Source of the DNA: a virus
Lineage: Duplodnaviria > Caudoviricetes
Direction: 5' to 3' (one strand)
IMG/VR virus record: IMGVR_UViG_3300034126_000032
Location: 1 to 55,128 of that record
DNA: 55,128 nucleotides
The notes under the pieces were generated by a model. That model did no database searches. It saw only the letters and a list, made by a program, of their open reading frames with translations, and had not been told where the DNA came from. Position 1 is the stretch's first letter. Every line of letters begins with the position of its first letter. Positions 18,145-52,653 of the stretch are shown here, piece after piece. The translations under genes and the position numbers were made by a program.

Positions 18145-18146
18145 AC

Positions 18147-23869: not shown

Positions 23870-24168
23870 CGGGGTTCCCTCGGGATGAGTGCCAGGTTGA
23901 AACCCAGGGCCCGGACTTCGGCGCGGACTTCGGCAACTACGTATTCAGCCAAGGCGACTCGGTCACCGAACAGCACCCCGACGCTGACACCCAAAACCTC
24001 GGCGAAAGCGGCCAGCCTCGCCACCGACGGCGTGACCTGGCCGAGCTCGGCCTGACTGACCGCAGCGGTTGAACACCCCAGCCTCCCGGCGAGCTGTTCC
24101 TGGTTGAGGCCGGCGTCCTTGCGGACTTGGCGCAGGGTTCGGCCGAACTGGGCCTGATCGAAACTCAC
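23866..24168 (-). CDS. XRE-family HTH regulator (repressor/Cro-like)
   Basis: FGRTLRQVRKDAGLNQEQLAGRLGCSTAAVSQAELG; GGAGG RBS before GTG 24168. Confidence 0.85.
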   Translation of the reverse strand: MSFDQAQFGRTLRQVRKDAGLNQEQLAGRLGCSTAAVSQAELGQVTPSVARLAAFAEVLGVSVGVLFGDRVALAEYVVAEVRAEVRALGFNLALIPREPR

Positions 24169-24533
24169 GGGGTCCTCCGGTCTGGGGTCAGGGCGCCGGC
24201 ACGGACGGCCCGCCGGTATGCCGCCGTAACCGCATCCCTGGACATGTGCAACCGTTCGCCGATCTGCCGGCGGGTGTACCCCTCCGAACGCAACAGCTCG
24301 TAGTCGGCGACGAAATCCTCCCGGGACCGGCTGACCCGTTCGAGGGGGTGTTCGTTGTGGCGGCCGGCGTTGTACGCGGTTGCGTAGCAGGCCCGGCAGA
24401 GGCCGCGGGCGTCTAATGGCCGGTCGGGGTGGCATCGGGCGGGTCTGGCCCGGACCACCACCAGGCGGGGGACGGCTAACAGCCGGCGGGCTGCAGCCTC
24501 AAACTCGGTGACCCTGTCACGCAAGTCGATCAT
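24165..24533 (-). CDS. Zn-finger + HTH DNA-binding protein
   Basis: CHPDR...RGLCRACY; GYTRRQIGERLHMS. Confidence 0.65.
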   Translation of the reverse strand: MIDLRDRVTEFEAAARRLLAVPRLVVVRARPARCHPDRPLDARGLCRACYATAYNAGRHNEHPLERVSRSREDFVADYELLRSEGYTRRQIGERLHMSRDAVTAAYRRAVRAGALTPDRRTP

Positions 24534-25402
24534 GGTTGATCCTGTTCGTCGGTGCGGGTTTCGGGTCCGGCACTTTGCGCGCCGGACTTTTGGTGGCGGT
24601 CGAGGATCCCAGCGGCCCGGGCGTTGAGCTTTTCTGCGGCGTTACGCCGGTCAAGGTCGCCTCGGATTCGGTCGCGGCGGGCCCGGTCGGCTGTCTGATC
24701 CGCGCGGGCGTGCGGGAGTGGGTCAAGGTTCGGGCTAGGGCGTGCGGTGAGCGCCTCGGAGAGTGAGTTTCGCTCGCCGGTCCCAGAACCCGACGCAGTC
24801 GGGGGCTGGGGTCGTAGGGGGTCTGGGGGCGGCGCGCCCCCAGTGGGTGGTTCCTCTGGTGGTTCCTCTGGTGGTTCATGGGTGGTTTGGGGGGCGTCAG
24901 GGGCGTTACGTGTGCCGTTGAAAGGCGTTACGTAACGCCCTTCAACGGCGTTACTAACGCCTTTCAACGGCGTTACGTCGATCTTGGTCGGAACATCAAC
25001 TTCGATGGGACGGGCACCCTTGACACGATCCCTGAACCGCTGCTGCCGATCCGCGTTGGCCTTACGCTTACGCTCCGCCCGATCATCAGTAGGCGAACTG
25101 TCGGTATCAGACTGCTTCCGTGTCATGTCCAGGTGCCACAACACCGTCCCTAGGCGTGAGACACCACCCCGGACGAGCAACCCGGCCTCCTCCAACCGTT
25201 GATCAGCGTGCCGAACAGTCCGCTCGGCGTAGCCCGTCGACCGGGCTACATCGTTACGCCCAGCGAAGGTGTTACGGCCATCCTTGTCGGCGCGTTCGGC
25301 CCGAGCGACCAGCACGAAACGTGCGGCGACGTCAGGCTCACCAGAAGGAGTCCGGAGCATCGGGGCTTCATGGAGCGCCCACTGCACGGCCTCGTAGCTC
25401 AT
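24530..25402 (-). CDS. Replication initiator / replisome organizer (N-terminal wHTH, lambda O-like layout)
   Basis: MSYEAVQWAL, ADKDG, ARSTGYAERTVR..LEEAGLL, ADRQQRFR; internal iterons. Confidence 0.75.
   Translation of the reverse strand: MSYEAVQWALHEAPMLRTPSGEPDVAARFVLVARAERADKDGRNTFAGRNDVARSTGYAERTVRHADQRLEEAGLLVRGGVSRLGTVLWHLDMTRKQSDTDSSPTDDRAERKRKANADRQQRFRDRVKGARPIEVDVPTKIDVTPLKGVSNAVEGRYVTPFNGTRNAPDAPQTTHEPPEEPPEEPPTGGAPPPDPLRPQPPTASGSGTGERNSLSEALTARPSPNLDPLPHARADQTADRARRDRIRGDLDRRNAAEKLNARAAGILDRHQKSGAQSAGPETRTDEQDQP
24902..24977. repeat. Iteron-like repeats / putative replication origin in Rep gene
   Basis: 36-bp near-perfect palindrome 24914-24949; 22-bp tandem TAACGCCYTTCAACGGCGTTAC at 24933 and 24955. 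Confidence 0.7.
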
Positions 25403-25498
25403 CTAGGCGTTACCGGCTGGGCGTGTAACGCAGTCTGAGTGCGTTACGCAGAACACGGCGTGCCATGCGCGTAGGGCGGGATATGGGTGTGGGACCAT
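25403..25498 (-). CDS. Leader peptide (31 aa) abutting Rep start
   Basis: GGAAGGAG RBS, ATGGTCCCA start, TAG immediately followed by Rep ATG. Confidence 0.5.
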   Translation of the reverse strand: MVPHPYPALRAWHAVFCVTHSDCVTRPAGNA

Positions 25499-25633
25499 GG
25501 GAGCTAGGGCTCCTTCCGAGGGATAGTCGGATGGTGACGGGCCGGGTAGGGCGCCTCAGTTCCCCTCCCGGCCCTCCCACTCTTCCACCCCACACCGGTC
25601 ATGATCTAGTGCCGCGCCGAACCCCGACTCCGG

Positions 25634-33404: not shown

Positions 33405-34130
33405 ATGTCAACCGGCCACGGCACCCGGGTTCTGCTGGGCAAGGACTACAACCCCGGCCAAGCCCGGTGGTGCGAGCAGCATGAACGCCTCGAATGCACC
33501 AAAAGCCGGAGAAACATCCCAGGACCATGCCACCAGATCGCCATCAAAGGAACCAACGCGTGCAGAACCCACGTCGGATACAGCCTCGACGTAGCCACAG
33601 CAAAAGGTGAATCCGTGGTCACCGCCTGGTGTGCACTAGGCAAACCAGCCACCGGCGAAACCATCGACTCAGGCATGGCCGTCCTCGGCATGCTCCACAT
33701 GACCTGGCTCCGGGCCGCCGCATACGGTGAACTCCTCCGCCAACAAGTAGCCAAAGAAACCCCACTAGAACCAGACCGTGAAGGACTCGGCCCCGGCACC
33801 GCGGTAACCCCATCCGGGCTCATCGGCTACCAGTACAGTGCCGCCGGCGCTGAGGGCACCATCTTCGCCACCTCAGAGAACATCCGCGCCCTGGTCATCC
33901 TCGAAGCAGCAGAGAGGGACCGGGTAGTCCGGTTCGCGAAAGTCGCCCACGATATGGGTATCAGTGAGCGGCTGACCAACTTGGCTGAGCGGTGGGGGGA
34001 TGTGGTCGTCACCCACCTGATGACCATGCTCGACTCGCTAGAGCTCACCCCGGAGCAACAGGCCCAGGTACCCGCGCTGATCCAAGTCCACTTCTCCCAA
34101 ATCGACATAGGCGCAACTGGAGTTAAATAG
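33405..34130 (+). CDS. Putative terminase small subunit
   Basis: N-terminal C/H cluster (C..C...CRTH), AHDMGISER; directly upstream of TerL. Confidence 0.6.
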   Translation: MSTGHGTRVLLGKDYNPGQARWCEQHERLECTKSRRNIPGPCHQIAIKGTNACRTHVGYSLDVATAKGESVVTAWCALGKPATGETIDSGMAVLGMLHMTWLRAAAYGELLRQQVAKETPLEPDREGLGPGTAVTPSGLIGYQYSAAGAEGTIFATSENIRALVILEAAERDRVVRFAKVAHDMGISERLTNLAERWGDVVVTHLMTMLDSLELTPEQQAQVPALIQVHFSQIDIGATGVK

Positions 34131-36622
34131 TGGACTTGGCAGCCAAGTATCTGAAACGTACCCGGATCAGACGCTGGTACGACTCACCCACATGCTGGGC
34201 CCAAGACTGCCTCCCGAACGTGAACCTGGCCGGGTATCAAGGGGAAGTGCTGGACGCTCTCCCCCAACGGAAGAGAGTGGCCCTACGCGGGCCGCATGGC
34301 CTGGGAAAAGCGAGTACACTTTCTACCGTGCTTACCACTCCCGTGGGATGGACCACGATAGAAGACGTCCAGATCGGTGACCAGGTCCTAGACGAGAACG
34401 GCAAGCCCTGCCGCGTAACCAGAAAGTCACCGATCTGGATTGGGCCGACGTATGAACTGGAGTTCGCCAACGGTGCGGTAGAGACGGTGCATGGCGAGCA
34501 TGAGTGGAACGTGATCGACGTCTACGACCGGCCAAGAGGAATCATCGATTGGCGCGACCACTGGGCCGCCACCCGTACCCGGACCACCGCGCACCTAGCC
34601 GAGACGCTGCGGACTAAGGGTGGTCAGCTCAGATGGCGGGTACCGACCGCCCAGCCGTTGGAACTACCAACCCAACTCGGATTAACGGTGGACCCGTACA
34701 CGCTCGGGATTTGGCTGGGCGATGGATCAACCGACAACGGTTCCATCTGCATCAACAGGGAAGACTCCGGGCTCATCTCGTCGCGCCTTATGAAGGGCCA
34801 CTTCGTACCGTCCGGGGAACGTCGCGAGGGCTCTCGGATCTACCGAATCCCCGGCCTGATGGCCCAACTCAGAACCCTCGGCGTGCTAGGCAACAAGCAC
34901 ATCCCGATGGCCTACCTCCGGGCGTCTATCGAACAGCGTCAGGAGCTAGTGCGTGGACTCTGGGACTCAGACGGTTACCGGCAGGCAAGCGGCTCCGACG
35001 AGATCACCCTGACCAACAAGCGGTTAGCCGATGACGTCGCCGAGCTGCTGCGCACGCTCGGCCTAGTAGTCCGGATGAATGTAGGTCGGGCCAGAATCGG
35101 GGACGTCGACTACGGCCCGAAGTATCGGATTGGTGTTCGGTTCGATTTCAACCCGTACCACCTCCTCCGCTACGACTGGGTGCCACGCGGAGCCCAGGCG
35201 TCCCGGCATACCCAGCACACGATCGTTGACATTCGGCGCGTAGCCGACCAGCCGACACAGTGCATAGAGGTGGACTCACCGAGCCACCTTTACCTGACCG
35301 GGGAGGCGATGATCCCCACGCACAACAGCTTCTTAGGCGCGGTCCTGGTGAACTGGTTCGCGACGACGAGGAATATGGCCGGCCGCGACTGGAAAATCAT
35401 CACCACCGCGTCAGCCTGGCGCCACCTCGAGGTGTACCTGTGGCCGGAAATCCACAAATGGGCCGGGTGCATCGACTTCGGCATCCTCGGTATGGCCCCG
35501 TACAACCCGCGCACCGAGCTGTTGGACCTGCGGCTGAAACTGTCCTGCGGGGCGGCCACCGCCGTGGCCTCCAACCAGCCGGAGAGGATCGAGGGTGCTC
35601 ACGCGGGGGAGCTGCTGTACCTGCTCGATGAGGCGAAGATTGTGCCGCCGGCCACCTGGGACTCGATCGAGGGCGCGTTTTCGAACGCGGGCCCGGAAAC
35701 CGCGGACAACGCGTACGCGTTCGCCATGAGCACACCGGGCCCGCCGTCCGGCAGGTTTTATGAAATTCACCGGCGGGCGCCCGGGTATGAGGACTGGTGG
35801 ACCCGCCACGTCACCATCGACGAGGCCGTCGAGGCTGGGCGGATCTCCCGAACCTGGGTGGACCAGCGGCGCCTACAGTGGGGTGCCGACTCCGCCGTCT
35901 ACCACAACCGGGTCCTCGGCGAGTTCCACGCCAGTGATGAGGACTCCGTCATCCCCCTCGCCTGGTTGGAAGCGGCCATCGAACGGTGGCACGACTGGGA
36001 CCGCGCCGGCCGCCCCTCACCCGGCGGCCCGCTCTGGACCGGTGTTGACGTCGGCCGCGGTGGCGACGAATCCGTTCTCGCCCATAGGGACGGTTGGGCA
36101 ATCACCCTCGAAGGCAACCGGCGTAGGGACACCATGTCCCAAGTCGCCGCCCTGCAAGGATTGGACGGCAGGGCAATCATCGACGTGATCGGTGTCGGTG
36201 CGGGGGTGTATGACCGGTTGCGTGAAACCGGGGCCCGGCCGCTCGCCTATACGGGGTCAAGTAGGGCAAATGTGAGAGATCGGTCAAATCGCTACGGTTT
36301 TGCGAACTGCCGGAGCGCAGCCTATTGGAATTTGCGCGAGCTGTTGGATCCGGCGTATGAGCCGATGCTGGCGTTACCCCCGGACGATTTGATGATCTCT
36401 GATCTGACTACCCCGACGTGGAGTGTGGTTACGGGGACTCCGCCGAAGTACCAGGTGGAGACGAAGGACAAGGTGGTCGAGCGGCTGGGCCGGAGTCCTG
36501 ACCGCGGTGACGCCATAGCCATGAGCCTGTGGGCTGATCGGCATCAGGGTGCCGGATCGTTCGCCGAACCGGTCGGGTCGATGCCGGTGACCAGCCTGAG
36601 TCCGGCCCGGCTGACCGGTTGA
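34130..36622 (+). CDS. terL: Terminase large subunit containing an intein
   Basis: GPHGLGK|S Walker A, LLDEA Walker B, STP, GVDVGRGGD, SPDRGDA nuclease motifs. Confidence 0.95.
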   Translation: MDLAAKYLKRTRIRRWYDSPTCWAQDCLPNVNLAGYQGEVLDALPQRKRVALRGPHGLGKASTLSTVLTTPVGWTTIEDVQIGDQVLDENGKPCRVTRKSPIWIGPTYELEFANGAVETVHGEHEWNVIDVYDRPRGIIDWRDHWAATRTRTTAHLAETLRTKGGQLRWRVPTAQPLELPTQLGLTVDPYTLGIWLGDGSTDNGSICINREDSGLISSRLMKGHFVPSGERREGSRIYRIPGLMAQLRTLGVLGNKHIPMAYLRASIEQRQELVRGLWDSDGYRQASGSDEITLTNKRLADDVAELLRTLGLVVRMNVGRARIGDVDYGPKYRIGVRFDFNPYHLLRYDWVPRGAQASRHTQHTIVDIRRVADQPTQCIEVDSPSHLYLTGEAMIPTHNSFLGAVLVNWFATTRNMAGRDWKIITTASAWRHLEVYLWPEIHKWAGCIDFGILGMAPYNPRTELLDLRLKLSCGAATAVASNQPERIEGAHAGELLYLLDEAKIVPPATWDSIEGAFSNAGPETADNAYAFAMSTPGPPSGRFYEIHRRAPGYEDWWTRHVTIDEAVEAGRISRTWVDQRRLQWGADSAVYHNRVLGEFHASDEDSVIPLAWLEAAIERWHDWDRAGRPSPGGPLWTGVDVGRGGDESVLAHRDGWAITLEGNRRRDTMSQVAALQGLDGRAIIDVIGVGAGVYDRLRETGARPLAYTGSSRANVRDRSNRYGFANCRSAAYWNLRELLDPAYEPMLALPPDDLMISDLTTPTWSVVTGTPPKYQVETKDKVVERLGRSPDRGDAIAMSLWADRHQGAGSFAEPVGSMPVTSLSPARLTG
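34310..35326 (+). mobile_element. Intein (339 aa, Ala1, class-3-type) with LAGLIDADG homing endonuclease
   Basis: Starts ASTLST after GLGK; HEW block B; LGIWLGDG and LVRGLWDSDG; QCIEVD block F; ends PTHN|S. Confidence 0.9.
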
Positions 36623-40878: not shown

Positions 40879-42852
40879 GTGGCGCTGAAACGACCCAAAC
40901 AAGTCGAGCCTGCCACCACCACACCCAAACCGTACGACCCGTTCGCAGCCGAGCACGTCCAACACCGCACCGCCCTCGCCGGTGCCACCGCTGTTGTCGA
41001 CCTCGGCGACAACTCCTCCTGGCGGACGTGGAAATTCGGCAACCGTGACTGGCAAGCCGAAGCGTGGCGCCTCTACGACATCATCGGTGAGCTGCACAAA
41101 CTGTCCGGCCGGGTCGGTGACTCCGTCGCCCAAGCCCGCCTGTACGTCACCGAAGTCGATCAGACCGGGGAAGAACAAGGCGAAGTCGAAGACGAAAACA
41201 TTCGCCGCCTCGCCGCGGTCCCCCTCGGCACCGGTAGCCAACGCGACGACAACCTCCGCCTAGCCGGGGTGGATTTGGCCGTCGGCGGGGAATGCTGGAT
41301 CGTCGGCGAGAACGCCGCCACCAACCCCGAGCAGGCCGAAGGTTCCTGGTTCGTAGTCACCGGTGCCGCCCTCACCCGCGAAGGCGCCCAGGTCAAAGTG
41401 CGTCGCCCGCAGCAACGCGGCGGGGCCAAACTCACCCTCACCGACGGTAAGGACATCCTCATCCGGTGCTGGCGTCCACACCCCAACGACACCGACCAAG
41501 CCGACAGCTTCACCCGCTCCGCCATCGTCCCCCTCCGCGAAATCGAGCTGCTCACCAAACGGGAGTTCGCCGAGCTCGACTCCCGGCTCACCGGTGCCGG
41601 AGTCTGGTTCCTGCCAGAGGGCATCGACTTCCCCCGCGCCGACAGTGACCCGGCCGGGATCGCCGGGTTCATGTCCTACATGCAACGTGCTGCCGCTGCT
41701 TCCATGGCAGACCAGGGTGTGGCATCCGCCATGGTCCCCATCATGGCGACCCTGCCCGACCAGATGATCGAACAACTCGACAAGATCAAACCGGTGAACT
41801 TCTGGTCCGAACTGTCCGCCGAAATCGGGCCGATGAAAGACAAAGCCATCGGCCGGGTCGCATCCATGGCGGAAATCCCCGCCGAAGTCCTCACCGGCAT
41901 CGGATCAACCAACCACTGGTCAGGATGGTTGATCTCCGAAGAGGGAATCCGCTGGATCCGCTCCTACCTCGGCCTCATCGCTGACGCCCTCACCCGCGGT
42001 TTCCTCCACCTCGCCCTAACATCCATGGGCGTCCCCAACCCCGAACGGTACGCGTTCACGTTCGACACATCTTCCCTGGCCGCTAAACCGAACCGGCTCG
42101 AAGATGCCCTACAGCTCCACGACCGGTTCTTACTCTCCGATGTTGAGACGGTCAAAGCCGGTGCGTTCGACATCGACGTCATGCCAACCATCCCAGACCG
42201 GGCCGCGCAAATTTTGCTGAAACTGGTCACCACCCAACCTGACCTCATCCTCGACCCAGCCGTCCAGCAACTCCTCGGGCTGCCGGCTGTGAAGAGTGTC
42301 GGTGTGCCTGCCACCGCCGGGCAGAACACGGATGGTATGGACCCGGCTGCTGACAGTCCGGCCGTGGACGGCCCACCCAACAACGGCACCATGCCTGATC
42401 AACCAGCCGACACAGGCTCAGCGCGGGCTATCACCGCCGCACTAGACCACCGGATCCGCGCGTTGACCGCCACCCGGGTGACTACCCCACCATCCCCACA
42501 GATGGTATTCAACGCCAGCGCGAAACTTATGGTGATGCGAGCACTCGAACTAGCCGGCGGACGCCTGACCACACCGCAGGAGCGACGCGGCCGGTGGGCT
42601 GACGTCCCACGCCACGAACTGCACCATCATGTCGGACCGATCACACCGGCGAAAGCCACCCAGGTAACCGCGGGTGCGTGGACCCACGTCGCCCTAGTGG
42701 CCTCAGACCTAGACGTCGACCCAGACGACCTCGGTGCGCTGCTATCCGGGTACGTACACGAGTTGTTAACCCGCGGTGTCCGCCACCACGATGATCTTTT
42801 GTACGCTGCATTGGCGGTCGCCAACCGGGGAAACGGGCTGGTGACAGCATGA
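40879..42852 (+). CDS. Portal protein
   Basis: WQAEAWRLYDIIGEL, RCWRPHP...ADS, GAGVWFLP, PAEVLTG..STNHWSGW. Confidence 0.85.
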   Translation: MALKRPKQVEPATTTPKPYDPFAAEHVQHRTALAGATAVVDLGDNSSWRTWKFGNRDWQAEAWRLYDIIGELHKLSGRVGDSVAQARLYVTEVDQTGEEQGEVEDENIRRLAAVPLGTGSQRDDNLRLAGVDLAVGGECWIVGENAATNPEQAEGSWFVVTGAALTREGAQVKVRRPQQRGGAKLTLTDGKDILIRCWRPHPNDTDQADSFTRSAIVPLREIELLTKREFAELDSRLTGAGVWFLPEGIDFPRADSDPAGIAGFMSYMQRAAAASMADQGVASAMVPIMATLPDQMIEQLDKIKPVNFWSELSAEIGPMKDKAIGRVASMAEIPAEVLTGIGSTNHWSGWLISEEGIRWIRSYLGLIADALTRGFLHLALTSMGVPNPERYAFTFDTSSLAAKPNRLEDALQLHDRFLLSDVETVKAGAFDIDVMPTIPDRAAQILLKLVTTQPDLILDPAVQQLLGLPAVKSVGVPATAGQNTDGMDPAADSPAVDGPPNNGTMPDQPADTGSARAITAALDHRIRALTATRVTTPPSPQMVFNASAKLMVMRALELAGGRLTTPQERRGRWADVPRHELHHHVGPITPAKATQVTAGAWTHVALVASDLDVDPDDLGALLSGYVHELLTRGVRHHDDLLYAALAVANRGNGLVTA

Positions 42853-43664
42853 CCGGTGAAATCTGGGACGGCGTCGGTGACGATCCGTGGTTGCCGCAGC
42901 GGTTGGAAGCCCGAGCTGAAACCGCCGCCGTGGAACGCAGCATCCGCGAAGCCGTATGGTCCGCACTGTCCGCATGGCTGGTAAAACTATCCCGCCGGGT
43001 GATCCGCGGAGACGCACCACCTAACCTGAGCGCCGTCTGGGCCTTGGCCCCACTCTGGCACGACGCCGTCGACATGATCATCCATGGTGAAATCCTCAAA
43101 GCCATCGGAGTCGCGTTCACCCGGGTCCTCGGCCCCGACTACCCGTTCGCCGCCAGGCCCGCCGTCGTCGCCCACTTGGCCGAAACCCGCAACCAGCTCG
43201 TACGCGTCCCCGACGAGGTATACGACCTCGTCGCCGGCGAAATCGCCCAAGGTGTGAACGTGGGCGAATCCATCCCGAAACTATCCGCCCGCATCGACGA
43301 AGTCCTGGCGACAGCAGGATCGGAACGCTGGTCGAACAGGGCCACCACCATCGCCAGATCCGAAACAATCTCAGCATTGAATGTGGGCCGCACCGACGCA
43401 TTCCAAGTCGTAGCAGACGACTCCGATGTACCAATGGAGATGCTTTGGATCGCCACCGACGACTCACGCACACGCCCAACCCACCGCATAGCCGAAGGCC
43501 AACGCGTCCCCGTAGGCCAACCCTTCATCGTCGGCGGCTACCCCCTCATGTTCCCCGGAGACCCACTCGGACCACCACAAGAGCGGATAAATTGCCGATG
43601 TGTCCCACTTTTGGTCGAAAAGGGCGAAACGGTGGACATGACCAACCGGCAGATGAGGAGATAG
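42849..43664 (+). CDS. MuF-like phage minor head protein
   Basis: RATTIARSE, WIATDDSRTRPTH, PGDP.GP..ERINCRC. Confidence 0.9.
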   Translation: MTGEIWDGVGDDPWLPQRLEARAETAAVERSIREAVWSALSAWLVKLSRRVIRGDAPPNLSAVWALAPLWHDAVDMIIHGEILKAIGVAFTRVLGPDYPFAARPAVVAHLAETRNQLVRVPDEVYDLVAGEIAQGVNVGESIPKLSARIDEVLATAGSERWSNRATTIARSETISALNVGRTDAFQVVADDSDVPMEMLWIATDDSRTRPTHRIAEGQRVPVGQPFIVGGYPLMFPGDPLGPPQERINCRCVPLLVEKGETVDMTNRQMRR

Positions 43665-43671
43665 CCCCAAC

Positions 43672-44430
43672 ATGGCCAATCTGCTCTGCGCCAAGCCCCT
43701 CCAGGGAAGTACCGTGCGCGTCACCATGCTCGACGCATGCGGTAACCCGCTACTCACCGAATGCGCTTACGCTGTCAGCGACGGTTTCGTATCCGTCACG
43801 CTCACCCCGAACGTAGACGAAGGCGAACGACTCTACGTTCGCAACTCCGACGGAGAACCGGTAATCAACCAGCGGGCCAAACCAAACCTCAACTGGTACG
43901 ACATTAGCCTGATATTTCAGGAGGTGGACTTTGAACTGTTCACCACCCTGACCGGGCTACTACCCAACGAGGACGACCTAGGACGCACCACCGGTTTCCT
44001 GGTCACTGAATCACGTTACGGAACCGGTAGCTTCGCCCTCGAAGTATGGATGGGCAACGCAGAAGAAGAATGCGCCCCCGGTGATGTTCTCCCATTCCAC
44101 GGCTACAACCTCCTCCCCTGGGTGGTAGAAGGTTCACTATCCGGAGACATCACCATCACGAATGATCTGATCACGTTCACTGTCACCGGCCGAACACGCA
44201 ACGGCACCTCCTGGGGGGTTGGCCCATACGATGTGGTACTCGACACCCTCGGCACCCCATCCCCCCTGTTCACCGCCATCCCGATAGACACGCATCACCT
44301 ACCGATTTGGACCCAACTAGCCCCACCAGCACCGGCGTCTTGCGGATGCCCTGCAGCGCTACCCGCCGGACTGCTCTACCCCGCACTAGACCTCTACCCC
44401 GCACTCAACCTCTACCCGATCGGAGCCTAA
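43672..44430 (+). CDS. Major tail protein paralogue with C-terminal LYP repeats
   Basis: Colinear and highly similar to 1041-1733; extra LYPALDLYPALNLYP. Confidence 0.8.
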   Translation: MANLLCAKPLQGSTVRVTMLDACGNPLLTECAYAVSDGFVSVTLTPNVDEGERLYVRNSDGEPVINQRAKPNLNWYDISLIFQEVDFELFTTLTGLLPNEDDLGRTTGFLVTESRYGTGSFALEVWMGNAEEECAPGDVLPFHGYNLLPWVVEGSLSGDITITNDLITFTVTGRTRNGTSWGVGPYDVVLDTLGTPSPLFTAIPIDTHHLPIWTQLAPPAPASCGCPAALPAGLLYPALDLYPALNLYPIGA

Positions 44431-44434
44431 CCCC

Positions 44435-46039
44435 ATGGCCTACACAAAACAGACATGGGCAAATGACATCGTCGGTGGGACACCCATATCCGCAGCCAGG
44501 CTCAACCACATCGAAAACGGCATCGAAAACGTCGACGTGGAAGCAGCCGTCAACGTCAAAAGCCCCCGATTCGCCGGCGGGGCAAAAGGCGACGACGCGA
44601 CAGACGACTCAGCGGCGATCCAAGCAGCCATCACCTACGCCGCAACTCTAGGCGACCCCGACACCCCAGGCGCAACCGTGTTCTTCCCCCCAGGAACCTA
44701 CCGGATAGGAACCACCTGCAACGTGCCCTCATCCGTGCGGTTACTCGGCGCCGGACGCGAAGCGACTACAATCCGGCGTACCGCCAACGTGTCCGTATTC
44801 ACCTTCCACGGCACCGACACACCAACCCGAAACTGGTACTGCGCACTAGAACACATGACCTTCGCCGGCGGCGACTTCAGCGCATCATGCCTCGACTTCG
44901 TATACGTGTCACAGTTCCAAATGGACCACGTGTCAGCCTACGCATGTACCGGCTCATTCCTAGACCTGACCGAAGTATGGGACTCATCATTCTCGAACGT
45001 CTTCACCGACTGGGTAGGATCTGGCACCCACCCGGCAATATGGATCCGCAACAGTCGGGCAACATCAGGATTCGGCTACTCATCAGACAACTCGAACCAA
45101 CTGAAATTCCTCAACCTACACTGCGAAACATTCCCCGGCACCGCAATCCGGATCGAATCAGGAACAAACAACACCGCCCCACCAAACGGTATCTACTTCA
45201 ACGTAGTCAAATGCGAATCATCACAAGTAACAACCCCATACCCATTCATTTACATTTCAGCGGAATGTCGAGGAGTGTACTTCGACAAAGTTTACTGCTC
45301 CGTCAACGCATTCGCAGCCGGATCATCAACCGGAATCAACGTAATCGAAAACAACTCCAACGGGCAAGTATCTCTCACCAACATCATGATCGCGTCAGCA
45401 AACGTCACACCCACGCTCGTCGACGCAGGAATCCAAATCAACACAACCGGGGTAGCATCACTCACCACCGTCAACAACGTCATCGGCGACTTCGGCCAAC
45501 CACCCATCTCCGGCCTAATCCGTGTACCCGGGGCAGGCGGACTCCACCTCGATCACCTCAACTGCGACAACGGCACGTTAATATCAGGCTTCGAAATGGA
45601 AGTCCAACAACGGATGCTGACCCTCCCCGCCGACATCACCACCACATCCACAACAATCGTCGACATGGCCGGACTGAAATTCTGGGACGCGCAAGAAGGC
45701 ACCTACACCCTAACATTCGAAGGCATATACCAATCCAGTGTCAACACTGCCTACCCGCGCATAGGATTCGGCGGAACAGCCACCACCACCACCCCAATCA
45801 TCGGCCGGGTCACAAACCACACCTCTACAACCGCAAGCACAACAGGCGTCATCACAGCAGCCAACACCGGGCACACCGGCGCCAACGCATCCGCCGCCAC
45901 AACCAACTACCAGATCTCCGGATGGTTCACATTCACCGTGACCGCCCCAGGCGCCATCGTCCTACGCTGGTACGCGTCAACCGCATCTACCCAGACGATG
46001 CTCGGCGGATCATGGGCACTCCTAGCCCGCAGCAAATAG
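44435..46039 (+). CDS. Beta-helix (pectate lyase 3-like) tailspike/depolymerase
   Basis: MAYTKQTW...PISAARLNHIENGI anchor; GAKGDDATDDSAAIQAAI, VFFPPGTY. Confidence 0.85.
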   Translation: MAYTKQTWANDIVGGTPISAARLNHIENGIENVDVEAAVNVKSPRFAGGAKGDDATDDSAAIQAAITYAATLGDPDTPGATVFFPPGTYRIGTTCNVPSSVRLLGAGREATTIRRTANVSVFTFHGTDTPTRNWYCALEHMTFAGGDFSASCLDFVYVSQFQMDHVSAYACTGSFLDLTEVWDSSFSNVFTDWVGSGTHPAIWIRNSRATSGFGYSSDNSNQLKFLNLHCETFPGTAIRIESGTNNTAPPNGIYFNVVKCESSQVTTPYPFIYISAECRGVYFDKVYCSVNAFAAGSSTGINVIENNSNGQVSLTNIMIASANVTPTLVDAGIQINTTGVASLTTVNNVIGDFGQPPISGLIRVPGAGGLHLDHLNCDNGTLISGFEMEVQQRMLTLPADITTTSTTIVDMAGLKFWDAQEGTYTLTFEGIYQSSVNTAYPRIGFGGTATTTTPIIGRVTNHTSTTASTTGVITAANTGHTGANASAATTNYQISGWFTFTVTAPGAIVLRWYASTASTQTMLGGSWALLARSK

Positions 46040-46094: not shown

Positions 46095-47522
46095 ATGGGC
46101 ACACAATTCCGGACAATGCTCGCACCCATCGGCCCATCCACCGGGGACGGCCGCCGATTCGCCGAAGGCGGCATCCACCTCGCCGACGTCCCATTCCCCC
46201 TCGAATGGGCACGATCCCGCGAAGGCGGCCACGACGGAGCCGTACCCGTAGGAGCAGTCCAACAAGCCGCCATCCTCACCGTCGACGAAGCCCTCACCCA
46301 AGGATACGTATCAGCCGACGCCGCCAAATACCTTGACCCCACCACGACCGCCGTATGGGCAAAAGGCGAAATGTTCGACGACGCTAACCGCGAAGAAATG
46401 CCCCGGATGGCGGAGGATGTTGCGGAGGCAATGCACCTTATGGGTGCCGGAACCCTCGGTCCTTCCGTCGATTTGGACTCGTTTGAGGGTTCTCCGGTAA
46501 TGGCTGGTACCGATGTGCCGGTCACGTGGGAAATGGTTGAGGAATATCAGGTTGAGCATGGTGAGGAACCGAAGCTGGAATTGTTGATCACTGAGGGTCG
46601 GGTTCGTGCGGCGACCCTTGTGTCAATTCCGGCGTTCGCGGAAACGTCCCGTCCGTTGGAGTTGATTGTCCCCGAGCAGGAGCCGATCCCGGCGGATGGT
46701 GGGCAAGGTGGCAGCGTGGCGGCCCTGATCGCCAGCACAGCAACCGCGGCCCGCCCGGATGTGGACGCGTTCACCCTGCCCGCCCTGGACCGGCCGACCC
46801 CGATCACCTGGGACTGGGACACCGGACGGGTGTACGGGCACATCGCGACGTGGCAAACCTGCCACGTCGGCTACGCGGATGTGTGCGTCACCGCACCCCG
46901 CGACGCATCCGGCGGGTATGCGGCGTTCAACCGGTTCCCGGTCGACACCGCTGACGGTGGCACTGTGTGGGCCGGCAGGATCACCGTCGGCGGCCGGCAC
47001 GCCGGACTGGACCTCACCGCATCCTCCGCCATGGCCACCTATGACACGAAAACGGTGGCCGCGCACGTCCGCGCGTACGAGGACGAGTTCGGGATTGTGG
47101 TGGCCGGGGTCATCGAGCTCGCCGAGGATGCCCCGGAGCGGGCTGTGCTGGAGCGGCGGAAGGTGTCGGGTGATTGGCGGGAAACCCCGGACGGGCTCAG
47201 CCTGCTCGAGGTGTTGGCGTTGTCTCCTGGGCCGCGTGCGCACGCGGAGCCGGGGTTCCCGGTCACGTTCAGCCGCCAGGGTCGCCAGGTTGCTTTGACC
47301 GCGGCGTTCGGCCCCGACCCGAACCCGGATGCCGGTGTCACGGTCCGGGCTGCTGTTGACGTGGACGCCCTCGCCGCCGCACTCGAACAGCGGCAAGCTG
47401 AGCGTGCCAAGGCCGCCCAGGCACGCGCCGGCCTCGCCGCCGCCATCAGGGTCACAGCAGACCTGGAACGGGCATCCCTCGCCACCATGGTGGGACGATG
47501 GACTTTGATCTGGGCGACATGA
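46095..47522 (+). CDS. Capsid maturation protease / scaffold-associated protein
   Basis: TGDGRRF, GPSVDLD, ATLVSIPAF, GRVYGHIA..TCH, SGDWR; GAAGGAGG RBS. Confidence 0.75.
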   Translation: MGTQFRTMLAPIGPSTGDGRRFAEGGIHLADVPFPLEWARSREGGHDGAVPVGAVQQAAILTVDEALTQGYVSADAAKYLDPTTTAVWAKGEMFDDANREEMPRMAEDVAEAMHLMGAGTLGPSVDLDSFEGSPVMAGTDVPVTWEMVEEYQVEHGEEPKLELLITEGRVRAATLVSIPAFAETSRPLELIVPEQEPIPADGGQGGSVAALIASTATAARPDVDAFTLPALDRPTPITWDWDTGRVYGHIATWQTCHVGYADVCVTAPRDASGGYAAFNRFPVDTADGGTVWAGRITVGGRHAGLDLTASSAMATYDTKTVAAHVRAYEDEFGIVVAGVIELAEDAPERAVLERRKVSGDWRETPDGLSLLEVLALSPGPRAHAEPGFPVTFSRQGRQVALTAAFGPDPNPDAGVTVRAAVDVDALAAALEQRQAERAKAAQARAGLAAAIRVTADLERASLATMVGRWTLIWAT

Positions 47523-48883: not shown

Positions 48884-49570
48884 TCATGACGCTGCCCCAC
48901 TGAGGAATGCTCGTCCGATGTACTCGGCGTACGCCGGCGGGATGGCCTCGGTCAACTCTTCACGCTCCGACGTCCAATCTATCCCCAACGCGTGCTGCAT
49001 CTCCGCAACCGTGGCTTTACCGCCACCAGAACCGTACGCAGCCACGTACGGCCCCTCTCGCAGCACGCCGTGCCGCATCCCACGGACGTAACCACGGTGC
49101 TTGATATGGATGGGCTGTGGCACGGTGAAGCCGTTGATCTCGAAGTCCCTGTGCCGCTGCACCCATGGCGGATCTCCGACCGGGAACATATCCATGCAGA
49201 GCCGCAGATCGGTCCGGATCAGACCGCCGTGACCGCTCGGTTGTTCAATAACGTACGGCCGACCGGTCACGGCGAGCAACTTACGCACGACGGGAACCAA
49301 CTGCTCGTGCTCTCGGCCCCACCCGTTCGCCTGATTCGTGCCGTTGGTCAGAGTGCAACCCGCCTGACACGGCGGGGACGCGTGCGCCACGGCGAACCGC
49401 GACAGGTCTGCGTTGGACAGGAAGCCGATTGCGTCTGCCTGAATGAACTCGTCTCCGCAGTAGTCGGGACGTGGCACGATGTCGACTCCGGTGACGTGGA
49501 AACCTGCCTTTTGGTAGCCGCGCGTGGCACCACCCGAACAGCAGAACAGATCGAGCAGTCGGGGATTCAT
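48884..49570 (-). CDS. DNA cytosine-C5 methyltransferase (short phage type)
   Basis: LLDLFCCSGG, GVDI, HASPPCQ, YVIEQP, RHRDFE, EAIPPAY. Confidence 0.85.
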   Translation of the reverse strand: MNPRLLDLFCCSGGATRGYQKAGFHVTGVDIVPRPDYCGDEFIQADAIGFLSNADLSRFAVAHASPPCQAGCTLTNGTNQANGWGREHEQLVPVVRKLLAVTGRPYVIEQPSGHGGLIRTDLRLCMDMFPVGDPPWVQRHRDFEINGFTVPQPIHIKHRGYVRGMRHGVLREGPYVAAYGSGGGKATVAEMQHALGIDWTSEREELTEAIPPAYAEYIGRAFLSGAAS

Positions 49571-49629
49571 ATCCGAACCTCTCCGGCGGAAACCGCTGGC
49601 CCGCCTGTGAAGTGTCAAGGGTGGGGTAC

Positions 49630-49806
49630 ACGAAAGAGGCCCGAATCCTGGCGGGGATCCGGGCCTCAGTCCCCACCAGGCCTCAACGGATGCGCAGGGC
49701 ACGGCCTGGTCGGGACTTGCTTGCTATACCCGCGGCGCGAGTTATTCGCCGTCTCCGCGGGGAGTCAGGCAAACCCTTCGGATTATTTCTACCTATCTCG
49801 CCTGAC
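49630..49806 (-). ncRNA. Candidate four-hairpin small RNA
   Basis: Consensus promoter upstream, three contiguous stems, then terminator hairpin + UUUC. Confidence 0.6.
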
Positions 49807-49813
49807 AGGACAA

Positions 49814-49842
49814 ACACTACAGGCGTGGCGGGGAAGTGTCAA
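49814..49842 (-). promoter_or_regulatory. Sigma70 promoter of the sRNA candidate
   Basis: TTGACA-CTTCCCCGCCACGCCTG-TAGTGT, near-identical to promoter at 36619. Confidence 0.75.
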
Positions 49843-49864
49843 CGGGAGGTGTCCGTGGGCACGG

Positions 49865-49902
49865 AGAAGGGCCCCGAGCGGGCGTGCTCGGGGCCCTTTT
49901 CT
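49865..49902. terminator. Hairpin GGCCCCGAGC/GCTCGGGGCC, copy 2
   Basis: Same stem as 48813-48837, followed by TTTT. Confidence 0.7.
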
Positions 49903-50059
49903 GCTGCCGCGCTAAATCCCGGTAGCGCGGCGCGCCGGTAGATCAAACCCGGGCCGGGGGTGGCAGGGTGATCGGTTAGAAACTGAGCGGCCGTACGGGT
50001 GCGTCAACACCCTGTCCGGCCTAGCTCCAGTCCGCGACGACGGAAGGAGCCTTACCCCC

Positions 50060-50116
50060 ATGGTCCCAGAAGCAGCCTGCACCGTCACGGCCGACACCCC
50101 GACGGCCAGTGCCTGA
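50060..50116 (+). CDS. Leader peptide (18 aa) coupled to second Rep-like gene
   Basis: GGAAGGAG RBS, ATGGTCCCA start, TGATG overlap. Confidence 0.5.
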   Translation: MVPEAACTVTADTPTASA

Positions 50117-50550
50117 TGACCGGCGAAGAGCCGCGCACCGAAAGCGCCGCCACCCACGGCAACAAAATGCTCAGCCGTTGGAACGGACTCATCCGGCGCG
50201 CCCGCATCGGCCACCAGATCAAAGGGACCGCACTCACCGTCAGCTCGTACGCCGACAACGACGGCACGAGCATCCGGTGCGGGGTCACCCGCCTCGCCGT
50301 CGACTGCGAGATCGGCTACAGCACCGCCCGCCGGCACCTCGCCTGGCTACGCGACGCCGGCCTCCTGGAGCTGGTACGCGCGGGCAACCACAAAGCGGGA
50401 CGCGCCGACGAGTACCGGCTCATCATCGCCCCCGCCGTCTATGAACGTCTCAACATTCCGGACGACGAAACGTACCGAAAGTTGATCGAGGACATGAACC
50501 AGGTGAACCGGTCCGGTCAGAAGATCCGCCGGCTATCAGCGCTCACCTGA
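50116..50550 (+). CDS. Second Rep-like wHTH protein (short)
   Basis: YADNDG, RLAVDCEIGYSTARRHLAWLRDAGLL, ADEYRL. Confidence 0.7.
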   Translation: MTGEEPRTESAATHGNKMLSRWNGLIRRARIGHQIKGTALTVSSYADNDGTSIRCGVTRLAVDCEIGYSTARRHLAWLRDAGLLELVRAGNHKAGRADEYRLIIAPAVYERLNIPDDETYRKLIEDMNQVNRSGQKIRRLSALT

Positions 50551-50640
50551 GCGAGCGCTGATACTACGGATCCAACGAGGGCTATTAGCGCTCACCTGGG
50601 TGAGCGCTAATAGGGGCTATCAGCGCTCACCCAGGTGAGC
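50531..50640. repeat. Three palindromic iteron/operator-like repeats
   Basis: GGCTATYAGCGCTCACC at 50531, 50580, 50615, each followed by an inverted arm. Confidence 0.8.
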
Positions 50641-50943
50641 CCCCACCTCTCAGTAAGAACTACCTCCCACTGGGGGCACGCTGCCCCCAGACCCCCTGCG
50701 ACCCCGACCCCCTCCTACGTCGGGGGTCGGGACCTGCGAGCGAAACTCACCCTCCGAGGCCGCCCACTCAACGCCCTGGGCTTTCAGCGCAACCCACTCC
50801 CGCGCGAGAAGCCGCGCACCGAACAGCCGATGACATTCGACCTGAACAGACCGCACCCGGTGTACGATCATGGCGAAACCCCGGCGTCAGGTCTCGGTCC
50901 GGCTGGAGTCAACCAAAAACAGACTCACAAAAGGACGGACCCC

Positions 50944-52653
50944 ATGTTCCCGTTCGACATCCCCGAAGACCTGACCACGCTCGCCGCGGCCGACTTCGCG
51001 GCGTTCACCGCGCAGGTTCGGGCGTTCGCCCAGACCACCCTCGACACTGACGACGCGACCGCGGAACTGTTGGTCGCGACCCGTGAGCTGTTCGCCACCG
51101 TCGCCACCGAGGAAACCCGGCGTACCGACCTGGCCGCCGCGGGCACGACTGCGCGTACCGAGCTGGCCGCCGGGCTGGCGCCCGCCCTTGAGCCGGAGCC
51201 GGTCGCGGTTGCCCAGCCTGCCCCCGCCGCCGCCCCCGCCGCCCCCGCCCCGGCCGCCGCCCCCGCCCCCGCCCCGGTCACAGCGCTCAGCACCATCGAC
51301 CCCACCCCTGAGGTACCCGCCGAGACGTACGCCGTCATGGTCGCCAGTGCGGATGCACCCGGCGCCGGTGGGGAACTCGCCAGCTTCTCCGACGTCGGTG
51401 CCCTCCTCGAGCGGCGCATGTCCGGATACTCGACCAGCACCCGCCGCAACGGCACCAAAACTGATCTCGGTCGCGGCCGGTTCAAGATCGGCGGGCAGTC
51501 CCTCACCCGCCACGGCGGCGCGCAGATCATCCGCCAGTTCCCCGAAAACCTGCGCATCACCGACGGCAAAGACCCCGGCACGGTCCTCGACTACGCCACG
51601 TCCGAGAAGCGTCTGCCCGGCGGATCGTTGATCAACGCAATGACAGCGTCAGTCACCGCCGGCCGGTCCCTGACCGCCGCCGTCGGCTGGTGCGCCCCGA
51701 GCGAAACCATCTACGACCTGTGCGCCCTGGAAACCATGGATGGCCTCTTGGACATCGCCGAGGTCCAAGCGACCCGCGGCGGGTTCTTCGTCCCCGCGAA
51801 CGGCGGCCCCAACTTCAGTACCATCTACGATTCCATCGGTGATGACGGTGATGTGATCCTCACCGAGTACGCGGTGGAGAACGGCACCGAGAAAGTCTGT
51901 GTGGAGATCCCGTGCCCGGACTTCGAAGAGGTCCGCCTGGATGTGGCGTACGTATGTATCACCGGGTCGCTGTTGCAGCGCCGGGGTTACCCGGAGGCGG
52001 TCACCCGGTTCACGCAGGGTGCCATGGTCGCCCTCGCCCATAAGGTCAACGAATCGGTGATCGCGAGGATTGTTGCCGGGTCTGGTGCCCCGGTCGTGAT
52101 TACCGCGGACCCGTCCGGTGACGACGCCGCCAGCGCCCTCCTCTCCGCTGTCGAGCTCGGGATTGAGGACATGCGGTATCGCAACCGCATGGGCCGCACC
52201 ACCACCGTCGAGGTTGTCCTTCCCGCGTGGGTTGTTGCACCGATCCGCGCCGCCCTCGCCCGCCGTACCGGTGTCGCCGCGATCAACGTGACCAACGCTG
52301 ACATCCTCGCCGCGTTCACCACCCGCGGCGCGGTCCCTCGCTTCGTCTATGACTGGCAAGACGCGTACTCCGGTCTCGCCGGCGGCCCGGGCGCGCAGGC
52401 GGCGATCACCCGTTGGCCGCTCACCGTGAAGTTCCTGGTGTACCCGGCGGGCACCTGGGTCAAGCCGGTCCGCGACGTCGTCAACCTCGACACCGTGTAC
52501 GACAACGCCCTGCTGACCACGAACCAGTACACGGCCCTGTTCTTGGAGGACGGGTTCAACGTGCTGAAGATGTGCGCCGACAGTCGCCTGTACACGGTGC
52601 CGATCGACGTCTCTGGCGTCGTGGCTTGCTGCCCGAGCCAGTACACATCCTGA
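50944..52653 (+). CDS. Major capsid protein with N-terminal scaffold-like region
   Basis: SLTAAVGWCAPSETIYD, KVCVEIPCPDF, LQRRGYPE, YDWQD, YPAGTWV, NQYTALF. Confidence 0.9.
   Translation: MFPFDIPEDLTTLAAADFAAFTAQVRAFAQTTLDTDDATAELLVATRELFATVATEETRRTDLAAAGTTARTELAAGLAPALEPEPVAVAQPAPAAAPAAPAPAAAPAPAPVTALSTIDPTPEVPAETYAVMVASADAPGAGGELASFSDVGALLERRMSGYSTSTRRNGTKTDLGRGRFKIGGQSLTRHGGAQIIRQFPENLRITDGKDPGTVLDYATSEKRLPGGSLINAMTASVTAGRSLTAAVGWCAPSETIYDLCALETMDGLLDIAEVQATRGGFFVPANGGPNFSTIYDSIGDDGDVILTEYAVENGTEKVCVEIPCPDFEEVRLDVAYVCITGSLLQRRGYPEAVTRFTQGAMVALAHKVNESVIARIVAGSGAPVVITADPSGDDAASALLSAVELGIEDMRYRNRMGRTTTVEVVLPAWVVAPIRAALARRTGVAAINVTNADILAAFTTRGAVPRFVYDWQDAYSGLAGGPGAQAAITRWPLTVKFLVYPAGTWVKPVRDVVNLDTVYDNALLTTNQYTALFLEDGFNVLKMCADSRLYTVPIDVSGVVACCPSQYTS

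Follow-up and report, generated by a model that had tools for sequence, protein, structure and literature searches.

Whether a phage genome with two genes for replication initiators also has two origins is the question raised by a locus at about 50 kb of the virus record IMGVR_UViG_3300034126_000032 (Duplodnaviria; Caudoviricetes). The window analysed was the whole record of 55,128 bp. An earlier note on this sequence had described two Rep-like genes, here called module 1 (minus strand, about 25 kb) and module 2 (plus strand, about 50 kb). It had proposed either two initiator/origin pairs, one lytic and one of a plasmid replicon, or a truncated Rep repurposed to control the adjacent capsid gene.

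The comparison with related loci led to a different answer. It is well supported by the aligned sequences that module 2 (about 49.9 to 50.85 kb) represents a second, incomplete copy of a modular replication cassette of actinomycete phages and prophages. A complete cassette has three parts, each of them well supported. The control part comprises a -10-like box, a 5' hairpin, a strong Shine-Dalgarno (SD) sequence and a leader open reading frame (ORF) coupled to the initiator. The specificity part consists of a winged-helix initiator domain together with the palindromic repeats that belong to it. In the origin core a 21-nt GC palindrome is accompanied by conserved blocks, and the initiator ORF normally reads through all of them before it reaches the C-terminal effector. 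Module 2 is, with equally good support, a mosaic: its control part is like that of module 1, its specificity part is like that of L028, a metagenome locus, and its origin core most resembles that of module 1. Its role would be that of an origin-binding competitor or regulator of the incompatibility or exclusion type, and not that of an autonomous second replicon. This whole account, including the role, is the most likely reading, with a probability of about one half; the anatomy is firm, and the role is inferred.

The initiator domain, its repeats and the missing tail

Both genes were rightly described as Rep-like winged-helix genes, as phrog_270 ('replication initiation protein') matched exactly two places in the six frames of the genome, namely modules 1 and 2. 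The 144-aa protein of module 2 was matched by PHROG 26991 (1.7e-7) and PHROG 270 (1.1e-5), but covered only the N-terminal third of these profiles. PHROG 391 ('replication initiation O-like') matched both modules weakly, with E values of 0.0022 for module 2 and 4.9e-5 for module 1. A Pfam search with the module 2 protein gave no hit, including Phage_rep_O at E <= 1. The proteins of the two modules were faintly alike (17/50 identities, E 0.035), and the common ADxDG motif noted earlier was present within this weak match, in which ADNDG of module 2 aligned with ADKDG of module 1. The AlphaFold2 model, with a mean predicted local distance difference test (pLDDT) score of 74.8, showed one generic winged-helix domain. 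Its best structural matches were MarR-type regulators, TFE-alpha, staphylococcal RepA_N and DnaD-N, all with template modelling (TM) scores of 0.34-0.44, and a sequence search of solved structures gave a best E value of 0.27.

A HMMER scan with the 144-aa protein returned 780 relatives at E <= 0.001, the best with an E value of 4e-50 and 67% identity. Among the top 149 relatives 137 had a length of 196-451 aa and 12 were shorter than 180 aa; the match was always near the N-terminus. Scans of genomes, viral contigs and metagenomes yielded 24 distinct related cassettes, which carry L numbers (L018 equals L001, and L024 and L027 repeat L008 and L012). Long ORFs of at least 215 aa were present in 18 of the 24, five were short and all came from Nocardia prophages, and L013 was unclear. 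The nearest relative, L028, is a long form of about 291 aa with 111 of 140 amino acids identical and 81% identity at the DNA level. The five viral relatives that were checked proved to be different phages with one cassette each. In L037 the N-domain is missing, and only the origin core with the 3' half of the initiator gene is present; partial cassettes thus occur. This stretch of the viral contig (L037, 1-940) adjoins a YoeB-like toxin ORF at the contig start, and an IS605-type TnpB-like ORF (387 aa, assigned by sequence features) lies directly after the provirus cassette of L001, at 4145-5308.

The N-domain of module 2 aligned with that of L028 without any indel over 140 codons. Among 37 columns invariant in 12 relatives, 33 were kept, and two of the four losses were columns beyond the stop codon. 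Over the divergence from L028 the ratio of nonsynonymous to synonymous substitutions (dN/dS) was 0.22, and 43 of the 80 differences were at third codon positions. The G+C content at third codon positions was 0.82 in the open frame 49999-50550, which contains the N-domain ORF. A 175-nt relative from a third sample showed two synonymous changes and one V>I exchange, as worked out by hand. By these measures the N-domain is intact and not decayed.

The three palindromic repeats described earlier, with the stop codon inside the first, were all present, although only the first two are full palindromes and the third has a degenerate right arm. They are direct copies of GGCTATYAGCGCTCACC starting at 50531, 50580 and 50615, whose left arms are identical at 16-17 of 17 positions, and all four exact matches of AGCGCTCACC are at the module 2 repeat sites. 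Such repeats are a constant feature of the family: a repeated 9-mer of its own directly followed the winged-helix domain in all 22 tabulated loci, so initiator and repeats vary together. The repeat core CAGCGCTCA is common to module 2, L003, L005, L014 and L019.

The TGA at 50548, for which a check had been proposed, was also found in an independent assembly of the probable source run, where a 7152-nt contig covered 49600-51186 with 0 differences; both assemblies rest on the same underlying data. A misassembly or sequencing error at the TGA was rejected as far as contigs, which hide rare variants, can show. Between 50548 and about 50660 none of the three frames stays open. A rescue of the ORF through readthrough or a frameshift was rejected as well, because the initiator frame contains TGA, TAA and TAG and both other frames meet stop codons upstream of the origin core. 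The remnant frame after the stop is not opened by any start codon. Pieces of the ancestral frame are still recognisable, GEPPPLSKNYLP and, in a different frame, LPPTGGTLPPDPLRPRPPPTSGVGTCERNSPSEA, and they resemble P0004 and module 1. Compared with L028, the region from repeat 1 onwards differs by the TGA and by at least three indels that break the frame; it also has one repeat less and a shorter spacer.

The long-form ORFs are read through their repeats, which gives peptide repeats such as RSP, SALT and SAE. Their tails end in recurring C-terminal segments (..DFFTREAM, Cys-rich, or AEEAIA..ARREAAR helices), so the far end of the long forms is a real part of the protein. In module 2 the homology to module 1 fades by about 50833, and capsid upstream DNA of the type found in Actinoplanes phage phiAsp2 begins at about 50860; the C-terminal segment of the long forms is therefore absent. 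By its reading frames and borders, the module 2 initiator is a truncated Rep without the C-terminal segment. The suggestion of a truncated Rep thus held. A decayed remnant, which the earlier note had named as a refuting outcome, is only half the picture: the 3' part is broken in all frames, but decay of the N-domain was not found.

Control part and origin core

A control part with the same order of elements, namely GC box, -10-like box, hairpin, SD (CGGAAGGA..) and leader, was present in eight cassettes (modules 1 and 2, L014-L018 and L021). The -10-like box fitted GGnAGnnT in all eight (TAGGAT, TAGAAT, GAGAAT, CAGGGT, AAGAGT), and positions 49925 to 49971 are regarded as the putative promoter of module 2. 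A 5' hairpin was predicted at the same place in every one of the eight, with folding energies from -21 to -44 kcal/mol and, relative to mononucleotide shuffles, z values from -1.8 to -2.5. RNAalifold on MAFFT alignments gave a 6-pair helix with few double changes, or 4 pairs with none, and no convincing consensus helix. The distance from SD to ATG was 18-21 nt in all eight cassettes. The leaders have 18-31 codons, and their stop codon overlaps or abuts the initiator start (ATGA, GTGA or TGATG in L014-L018, L021 and L036). Read from the sequences, no initiator start among the leader-bearing cassettes has an SD.

The earlier note had proposed one translational control design for both modules, and this was confirmed as an SD followed by a short ORF ending on the initiator start, which recurs in relatives; the design thereby withstands the refutation named in that note, a leader similarity missing from relatives. 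The leader was found in six of 22 loci examined (L014-L018, L021) and in L036; the remaining initiators directly follow upstream genes. The same control part precedes a module-1-type initiator in L036 and module-2-type initiators in L014-L018, which speaks for the modularity of the cassette.

The leader motif shared by the two modules was likewise borne out. GGAAGGAGCC occurs twice in the 55-kb genome, both times at the leaders, against an expected 0.12 and with 0 of 100 shuffles reaching two. CCTAGCTCC also occurs exactly twice, again at both leaders (expected 0.25; 2 of 100 shuffles reach two). CGGAAGGAGCCTTACCCCCATGGTCCCA at 50041-50068 on the plus strand has its counterpart CGGAAGGAGCCCTAGCTCCCATGGTCCCA from 25518 on the minus strand; these 28/29-mers are one indel and two substitutions apart, and because of the indel an ungapped search with three mismatches returned the module 2 copy alone. 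Both leaders start with MVP and end with GCC and a stop at the initiator ATG. The homology is wider than the leader, to which it had been assigned: about 170 nt upstream and about 150-170 nt beyond the repeats are also shared by modules 1 and 2. The proposed pairing of GCTCC with the GGAGC of the SD was not upheld. Although the minimum-energy folds of both leaders contained it, these folds were not more stable than those of shuffled sequences (z -0.18 and -1.18); relative to the SD, CCTAGCTCC changes sides, being 5' of it in module 2 and between SD and ATG in module 1 (25508-25500), and the pairing is missing from the relatives.

The leader of module 1 has 31 codons (25498-25403, minus strand) and encodes MVPHPYPALRAWHAVFCVTHSDCVTRPAGNA (MVPHPYPALRAW...AGNA, TAG), with the initiator ATG directly after it at 25402. 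It holds three copies of the GTAACGC core of the module's own repeat. Copies of the own repeat in the leader or at the 5' end of the gene were found in module 1 and several relatives, which suggests autoregulation; module 2 has none in these places. The 5' end of the module 2 leader resembles the module 1 control region, and its last ~14 nt are homologous to the end of the methylase gene upstream of the L028 initiator. In L028 the initiator ATG overlaps the stop codon of this 302-aa methylase gene, and the homology with module 2 reaches only ~14 nt upstream of the ATG; the leader of module 2 is thus a chimera that arose at a junction. The leader peptides of module 1, L014, L016, L017 and L036 share M-[VL]-P-x-P ... 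[HN]-A/T-V-[QRF], and the DNA is equally conserved.

The hairpin at the left edge of module 2 (49869..49902) was not called by the terminator scan; possibly it acts as a terminator and so insulates module 2 on its upstream side. It is on the sense strand, upstream of the putative promoter, and gave a sub-threshold Rfam match to the antisense family ctRNA_p42d (27.5 bits; gathering score 50). Nothing in the module 2 region reached the gathering score of any Rfam family, including the antisense and pseudoknot control RNA families of plasmids. The gap between the start of the leftward methylase gene and module 2 (49703-49902, 200 nt) has no plus-strand gene upstream that would need termination, and its hairpin with TTTTCT could be a small RNA gene or a terminator brought along with the cassette.

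Beyond the repeats, module 2 carries the full conserved set of GAGCCCCCACC, GC palindrome, AACTCAC box and CACTCCCGC. The junction GAGCCCCCACC is common to L001, L006, L008, L010 and L012. Positions 50660-50833 align with 24850-24690 of module 1, with 84 of 104 nt identical from the palindrome on; the identity of the origin core was 81% to module 1, the best match, and 73% to L028. The ORF of module 1 traverses its own repeats CGTAACGCC (four copies at 24902-24977 and one at 24638), the GC palindrome (24843-24823), the AACTCAC box (24777-24763) and CCCACTCCCGC (24722-24712). A small gene on the minus strand (24165-24533), coupled by ATGA to the end of the module 1 initiator, matched an HNH-endonuclease PHROG (3.2e-11); its CxHP...GLCRAC motif is like the Cys-rich tails of some long-form initiators.

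The common palindrome CTGGGGGCGCGCCGCCCCCAG was found in 14 of 18 cassettes (module 1, L003, L014-L017, L028 and the viral contigs L029, L030, L033, L036, L037, L040 and L042) and the variant CTGGGGGCACGCTGCCCCCAG in the other four (module 2, L035, L038 and L039), with both changes at paired positions. In every other judgeable cassette the palindrome is read in one frame, as xGGAPPPDP or xGGTLPPDP. The AACTCAC box is kept also in the non-coding DNA of five Nocardia loci. The identical third positions, the pair-preserving variant and the box in untranslated Nocardia DNA point to a constraint on the nucleic acid. The xGGAPPPDP motif is thus likely to be constrained as DNA or RNA. It also stays conserved where it is untranslated. 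In the long forms the differences were spread nearly evenly over the three codon positions in both N-domain and tail, these sequences being too diverged for such counts to tell constraint on the protein from constraint on the DNA. DnaA boxes of the form TT[AG]TCCACA were found in neither module 1 nor module 2. The features are collected in Table 1.

Table 1. Positions of the features of module 2, of module 1 and of the mapped genes
Feature	Position	Strand	Remark
GC-rich hairpin, then TTTTCT; left cassette edge	49869..49902	+	read directly in sequence
Conserved upstream box GCGCGGCGCGCC and -10-like box GGCAGGGTGA (49962-49971)	49925..49971	+	aligns with module 1 and 6 relatives
Imperfect hairpin of the 5' untranslated region, GGCCGTACGGGTG...CACCCTGTCCGGCC	49989..50021	+	predicted fold
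CCTAGCTCC, candidate anti-SD	50020..50028	+	upstream of SD
SD GGAAGGAGCC	50042..50051	+	starts 18 nt before leader ATG
Module 2 leader ORF, 18 codons, MVPEAACTVTADTPTASA	50060..50116	+	TGA 50114-50116 overlaps initiator ATG 50116-50118 (TGATG)
Initiator N-domain ORF, 144 aa, winged helix-turn-helix, without own SD	50116..50550	+	profile and model matches
Repeat 1, full palindrome TATCAGCGCTC ... GAGCGCTGATA	50531..50563		contains TGA 50548-50550
Repeat 2, perfect 15+15 palindrome (50582-50613) CTATTAGCGCTCACC / GGTGAGCGCTAATAG	50580..50613		adds TAA TAG to initiator frame
Repeat 3, intact left and degenerate right arm, runs into GAGCCCCCACC	50615..50647		
G-poor spacer, repeats to palindrome	50648..50669	+	shorter than in L028
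21-nt GC palindrome CTGGGGGCACGCTGCCCCCAG	50670..50690		pair-preserving double variant of CTGGGGGCGCGCCGCCCCCAG
Block GCGAGCGAAACTCAC, AACTCAC box	50736..50750	+	reads ERNS in long-form proteins, untranslated in module 2
Block CCCACTCCCGC, last block common to module 1 and relatives	50793..50803	+	
Capsid-gene upstream region kept with phiAsp2 (TACGATC ... GTCAGGTCTCGGyCCGGCTGGAGTCA)	50860..50911	+	right cassette limit
Major capsid protein gene, 569 aa, neighbour outside module	50944..52653	+	phrog_777 3.9e-146, profile 2-573 of 580
Module 1 control region	25403..25586	-	-10-like box 25586-25577, hairpin 25574-25539, SD 25517-25508, leader 25498-25403
Module 1 initiator, 290 aa, long form	24530..25402	-	phrog_1032 1.2e-8
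Early region	about 23-31 kb	leftward	Sak4-like protein, helicase, methylase, module 1, small HNH-like gene
Methylase of early region	25634-26590		
Helicase	26575-27864		early region
Large terminase	34130-36622		PHROG/Pfam scan
Portal	40879-42852		PHROG/Pfam scan
Head-morphogenesis genes	42849-43664 and 46095-47522		PHROG/Pfam scan
DNA methylase	48884-49702	leftward	PHROG/Pfam scan
Tail genes	span record ends		PHROG/Pfam scan

Possible roles of the truncated module

If module 2 acts as a competitor or regulator, the leader would be translated from its strong SD, and the initiator, without an SD, would be reached by termination and reinitiation at TGATG. The product would be a 144-aa repeat-binding domain ending in the first repeat, with the C-terminal effector neither attached nor encoded downstream. 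It would occupy the three palindromes, and like repeats with a CAGCGCTCA core elsewhere, without recruiting the replication machinery. Several points weigh against this role. Five Nocardia prophage cassettes stop in the first repeat at the place where a phage origin is expected, and such a stop therefore need not disable a cassette. The whole origin core is kept (palindrome, AACTCAC box and CCCACTCCCGC), although a module that served for binding alone could do without it. The dN/dS value spans the whole divergence from L028 and is undatable relative to the truncation, and the protein is a singleton at 90% identity. A bolder form of the competitor reading, which we regard as unlikely, would treat the 'linker' peptide motifs EPPPS, xGGAPPPDP, ERNS and LPHARA as origin DNA that is merely read through and the three parts as freely exchangeable. 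Module 2 would then be a 'headless' origin-jamming device, whose effector-less domain and decoy repeats block or titrate competitors with CAGCGCTCACC-type repeats in the same hosts.

The Nocardia loci (L006, L007, L008, L010 and L012) bear most directly on the possibility that module 2, as a naturally short form, provides a second functional initiator/origin pair, in which the 144-aa protein opens or marks an origin at the three repeats. In these loci a winged-helix ORF of ~115 aa ends with TGA in the first palindromic repeat, as in module 2, and GTGA or ATGA is part of the right arm of the palindromes. Next come 5-6 repeats in a non-coding array with a perfect DnaA box TTATCCACA, and then GA(T/C)CCCCCACC, a G-poor stretch and ACGCAACTCAC. 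The Nocardia proteins are 56-67% identical to each other, yet the non-coding DNA after the repeats shows 72% column identity, and the cassettes follow genes of the RecE/RecT type. Module 2 shares this layout, has kept every block of the origin core, with a pair-preserving double change in the palindrome and the high identity to module 1 mentioned above, and its control part, SD, leader and N-domain are all intact. However, the perfect DnaA boxes of the Nocardia loci have no counterpart in module 2. Module 2 also lacks the small ORF found after the origin in three of the five, which has a Cys motif and RAQQAIAAA and is faintly like the long-form tails (E 0.002-0.6, from a tiny database); in those Nocardia cassettes the gene may be split around the origin. 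The Nocardia DnaA boxes are of the E. coli type, at about 4320-4640 of each locus, and three loci have a second, DnaA-like box, TGTGGAYAA, just after the AACTCAC block.

All closer relatives of module 2 are long forms, and the repeat core occurs 4-9 times in relatives, compared with three repeats here. The variant palindrome is also present in the long forms L035, L038 and L039 and may simply have been inherited. Moreover, partition or integration genes, with which a second replicon would have a role, were not found: the complete genome, searched in six frames for integrase (PF00589), resolvase (PF00239), ParA-type (PF13614) and ParB_N (PF02195) genes, contained 0 matches, the search for partition genes covering these two types. 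With no such genes found and the C-terminal half that 18 of the 24 relatives have missing from module 2, the two complete initiator/origin pairs, lytic and plasmid, of the earlier note were not supported. A working short-form origin is accordingly judged improbable, and equally so the related idea that the shared core recruits the host or phage replication factors that also serve module 1, for example the helicase or the small Cys-motif protein encoded after module 1.

The place of module 2 in the genome bears on the two remaining explanations. The adjacent capsid protein is closest to the major head protein of phage phiAsp2 (76.5% identity over 77% of the query), and where module 2 is found, phiAsp2 has six unrelated leftward genes, pas8 to pas13. 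By this comparison module 2 occupies a variable slot upstream of the capsid gene's own upstream region. The leftward methylase 48884-49702 is not like pas13; the left side therefore gives no defined insertion point. Module 2 could thus be a functionless recombination remnant copied into a variable slot, with an N-domain that is intact only because the event was recent. The loss of the C-terminal segment, the several stops and frameshifts after codon 144, the variable slot, the second partial cassette in L037 and the singleton protein all fit this explanation, as does the module 2 leader, which lacks the operator-like copies of the repeat that module 1 and relatives have in their leaders or 5' ends. 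Conversely, the N-domain has the low dN/dS given above, the left arms of the repeats have hardly changed, and SD, leader start and coupling are intact. At least four frame-breaking differences follow the stop within ~130-300 nt, whereas the 432-nt N-domain has none; with an even distribution of such events, the chance that all four fall in 300 of 732 nt would be about 0.03, a contrast that is suggestive and, since repeats are prone to indels, weaker than it appears, which also takes something from the competitor reading. We consider a functionless remnant doubtful.

A role of the truncated protein as a transcription factor for the late (capsid) operon, with the palindromes as operator or roadblock, had been the other suggestion of the earlier note. 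Palindromes of 15+15 nt would suit a dimeric winged-helix regulator, MarR-type regulators are among the best fold matches, and in the interval from the ORF to the capsid gene no site resembling a terminator was found, so that transcripts from the putative module 2 promoter could continue into that gene. Nevertheless, the capsid gene has its own upstream region, which is shared with phiAsp2, a phage without module 2, and begins ~220 nt past the last repeat. The repeats, spacer and core are cassette parts that occur in relatives far from capsid genes, and none of the five viral relatives checked had a strong match to the capsid protein. Control of the capsid gene is therefore very unlikely, and the reading of module 2 as a truncated competitor or regulator of replication is preferred.

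Genome setting and known systems

The record represents a whole virus from a peat metagenome, with 63.7% G+C and direct terminal repeats, and is rated 100% complete. Its gene map was obtained from PHROG and Pfam scans of the genome (Table 1). In searches against the phage collection, which may lack records close to this genome, module 2 gave no match by blastn with the DNA or by tblastn with the protein, and module 1 gave only two distant N-domain matches, in TurkishDelight and DatBoi.

Some further observations were made on the map. The N- and C-terminal parts of the 830-aa large terminase match terminase profiles separately (46-289 and 398-806), and residues 402-608 also match a family of unknown function; the split match may reflect an insertion such as an intein. 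A gene like that of the major tail protein occurs twice (phrog_792, 1.1e-69 at 43672-44430 and 1.2e-76 at 1041-1733), each copy followed by a fibre- or spike-like gene (43672-46039; 1041-3861), and the first of these pairs lies inside the head block between the two head-morphogenesis genes. A cluster of sugar-modifying genes at 14941-18964 contains a glycosyltransferase (phrog_14775), a protein like rhamnosyl O-methyltransferase/CmcI (PF04989, 3.3e-34), a 636-aa protein matching phrog_2675 and a glycosyltransferase family, and a glucosyltransferase (phrog_854).

Among known systems, lambda O and its origin resemble the modules in that the N-terminal domain of O binds DNA repeats inside its own gene. 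In lambda-type phages, too, the specificity part (N-domain and repeats) varies while the rest is conserved, as in the cassettes described here. The weak PHROG 391 match of both modules is in line with this likeness, whereas the Pfam result for Phage_rep_O is not. In the present cassettes palindromic repeats occupy the 3' end of the domain, and the spacer after them is G-poor and not AT-rich as in lambda; module 2 also lacks the C-terminal half, which in lambda O recruits the helicase loader. Repeats inside rep1 are known from the linear plasmids pSLA2 and pSCL, where the second replication protein of pSLA2 is a helicase.

In the plasmids R1 (tap-repA) and ColIb-P9 (repY-repZ) the stop of a short ORF lies at the rep start or overlaps it, and the rep gene has no SD of its own and depends on translation of the leader. 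The TGATG overlap in module 2, the TAG-ATG junction in module 1 and the lack of an SD at both initiators are similar. Those plasmids differ in using antisense RNAs (CopA, Inc RNA), some with a pseudoknot, none of which was above the Rfam threshold here. The coupling of the R1 and ColIb-P9 rep genes to leader peptides is mentioned in work on the Pseudomonas plasmid pPsv48C (PMC5304414). That plasmid is described as having two replicons with an exchangeable control module (REx-C/REx-R), both of which work and for which an antisense RNA is proposed. Its two non-homologous or barely homologous replication genes each follow a homologous control region with stem-loops, SD and leader-peptide gene, and the control module recurs elsewhere before different initiator families (PMC5304414). 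The present case concerns a phage, has no sequence relation to pPsv48C and includes a truncated second initiator; by analogy, pPsv48C would be the closest parallel in logic.

The Streptomyces theta plasmids pFP1, pFP11, pWTY27 and SCP2 are described as iteron replicons (PMC3583192). They are similar in layout, with a DNA-binding Rep and adjacent or internal direct and inverted repeats, but are maintenance replicons of plasmids with a second replication protein, which in pWTY27 is a primase/polymerase (PMC3583192). Extrachromosomal mycobacteriophage prophages need a RepA of 320-350 aa for maintenance and carry parABS; their RepA is a phage-borne helix-turn-helix initiator with an origin suggested within or next to the gene, as in lambda (PMC7157519). 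No ParA or ParB was found here, and the module 2 protein has only 144 aa. The same lack of ParA-type and ParB_N matches separates this genome from P1-type phage-plasmids. Initiators of the Rep_3/RepA iteron type have two winged-helix domains, whereas the module 2 protein had no Pfam hit and one winged helix in its model, and the structural likeness to staphylococcal RepA_N is generic (TM 0.38-0.43). A literature search of the main texts of a limited collection yielded no account of the cassette family, and none of actinophage initiators with a coupled leader.

The origins of actinomycete phages are poorly mapped, and this locus with its relatives provides a testable anatomy from the promoter to the origin core. 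The occurrence of the same control leader before barely related initiators parallels the exchangeable modules of Pseudomonas plasmids, here in phages. As a complete and an effector-less cassette with different repeat specificity are present in one phage, trans-dominant interference between phage origins becomes directly testable. If module 2 does fire, the phage would have two origins of different specificity that share one origin core.

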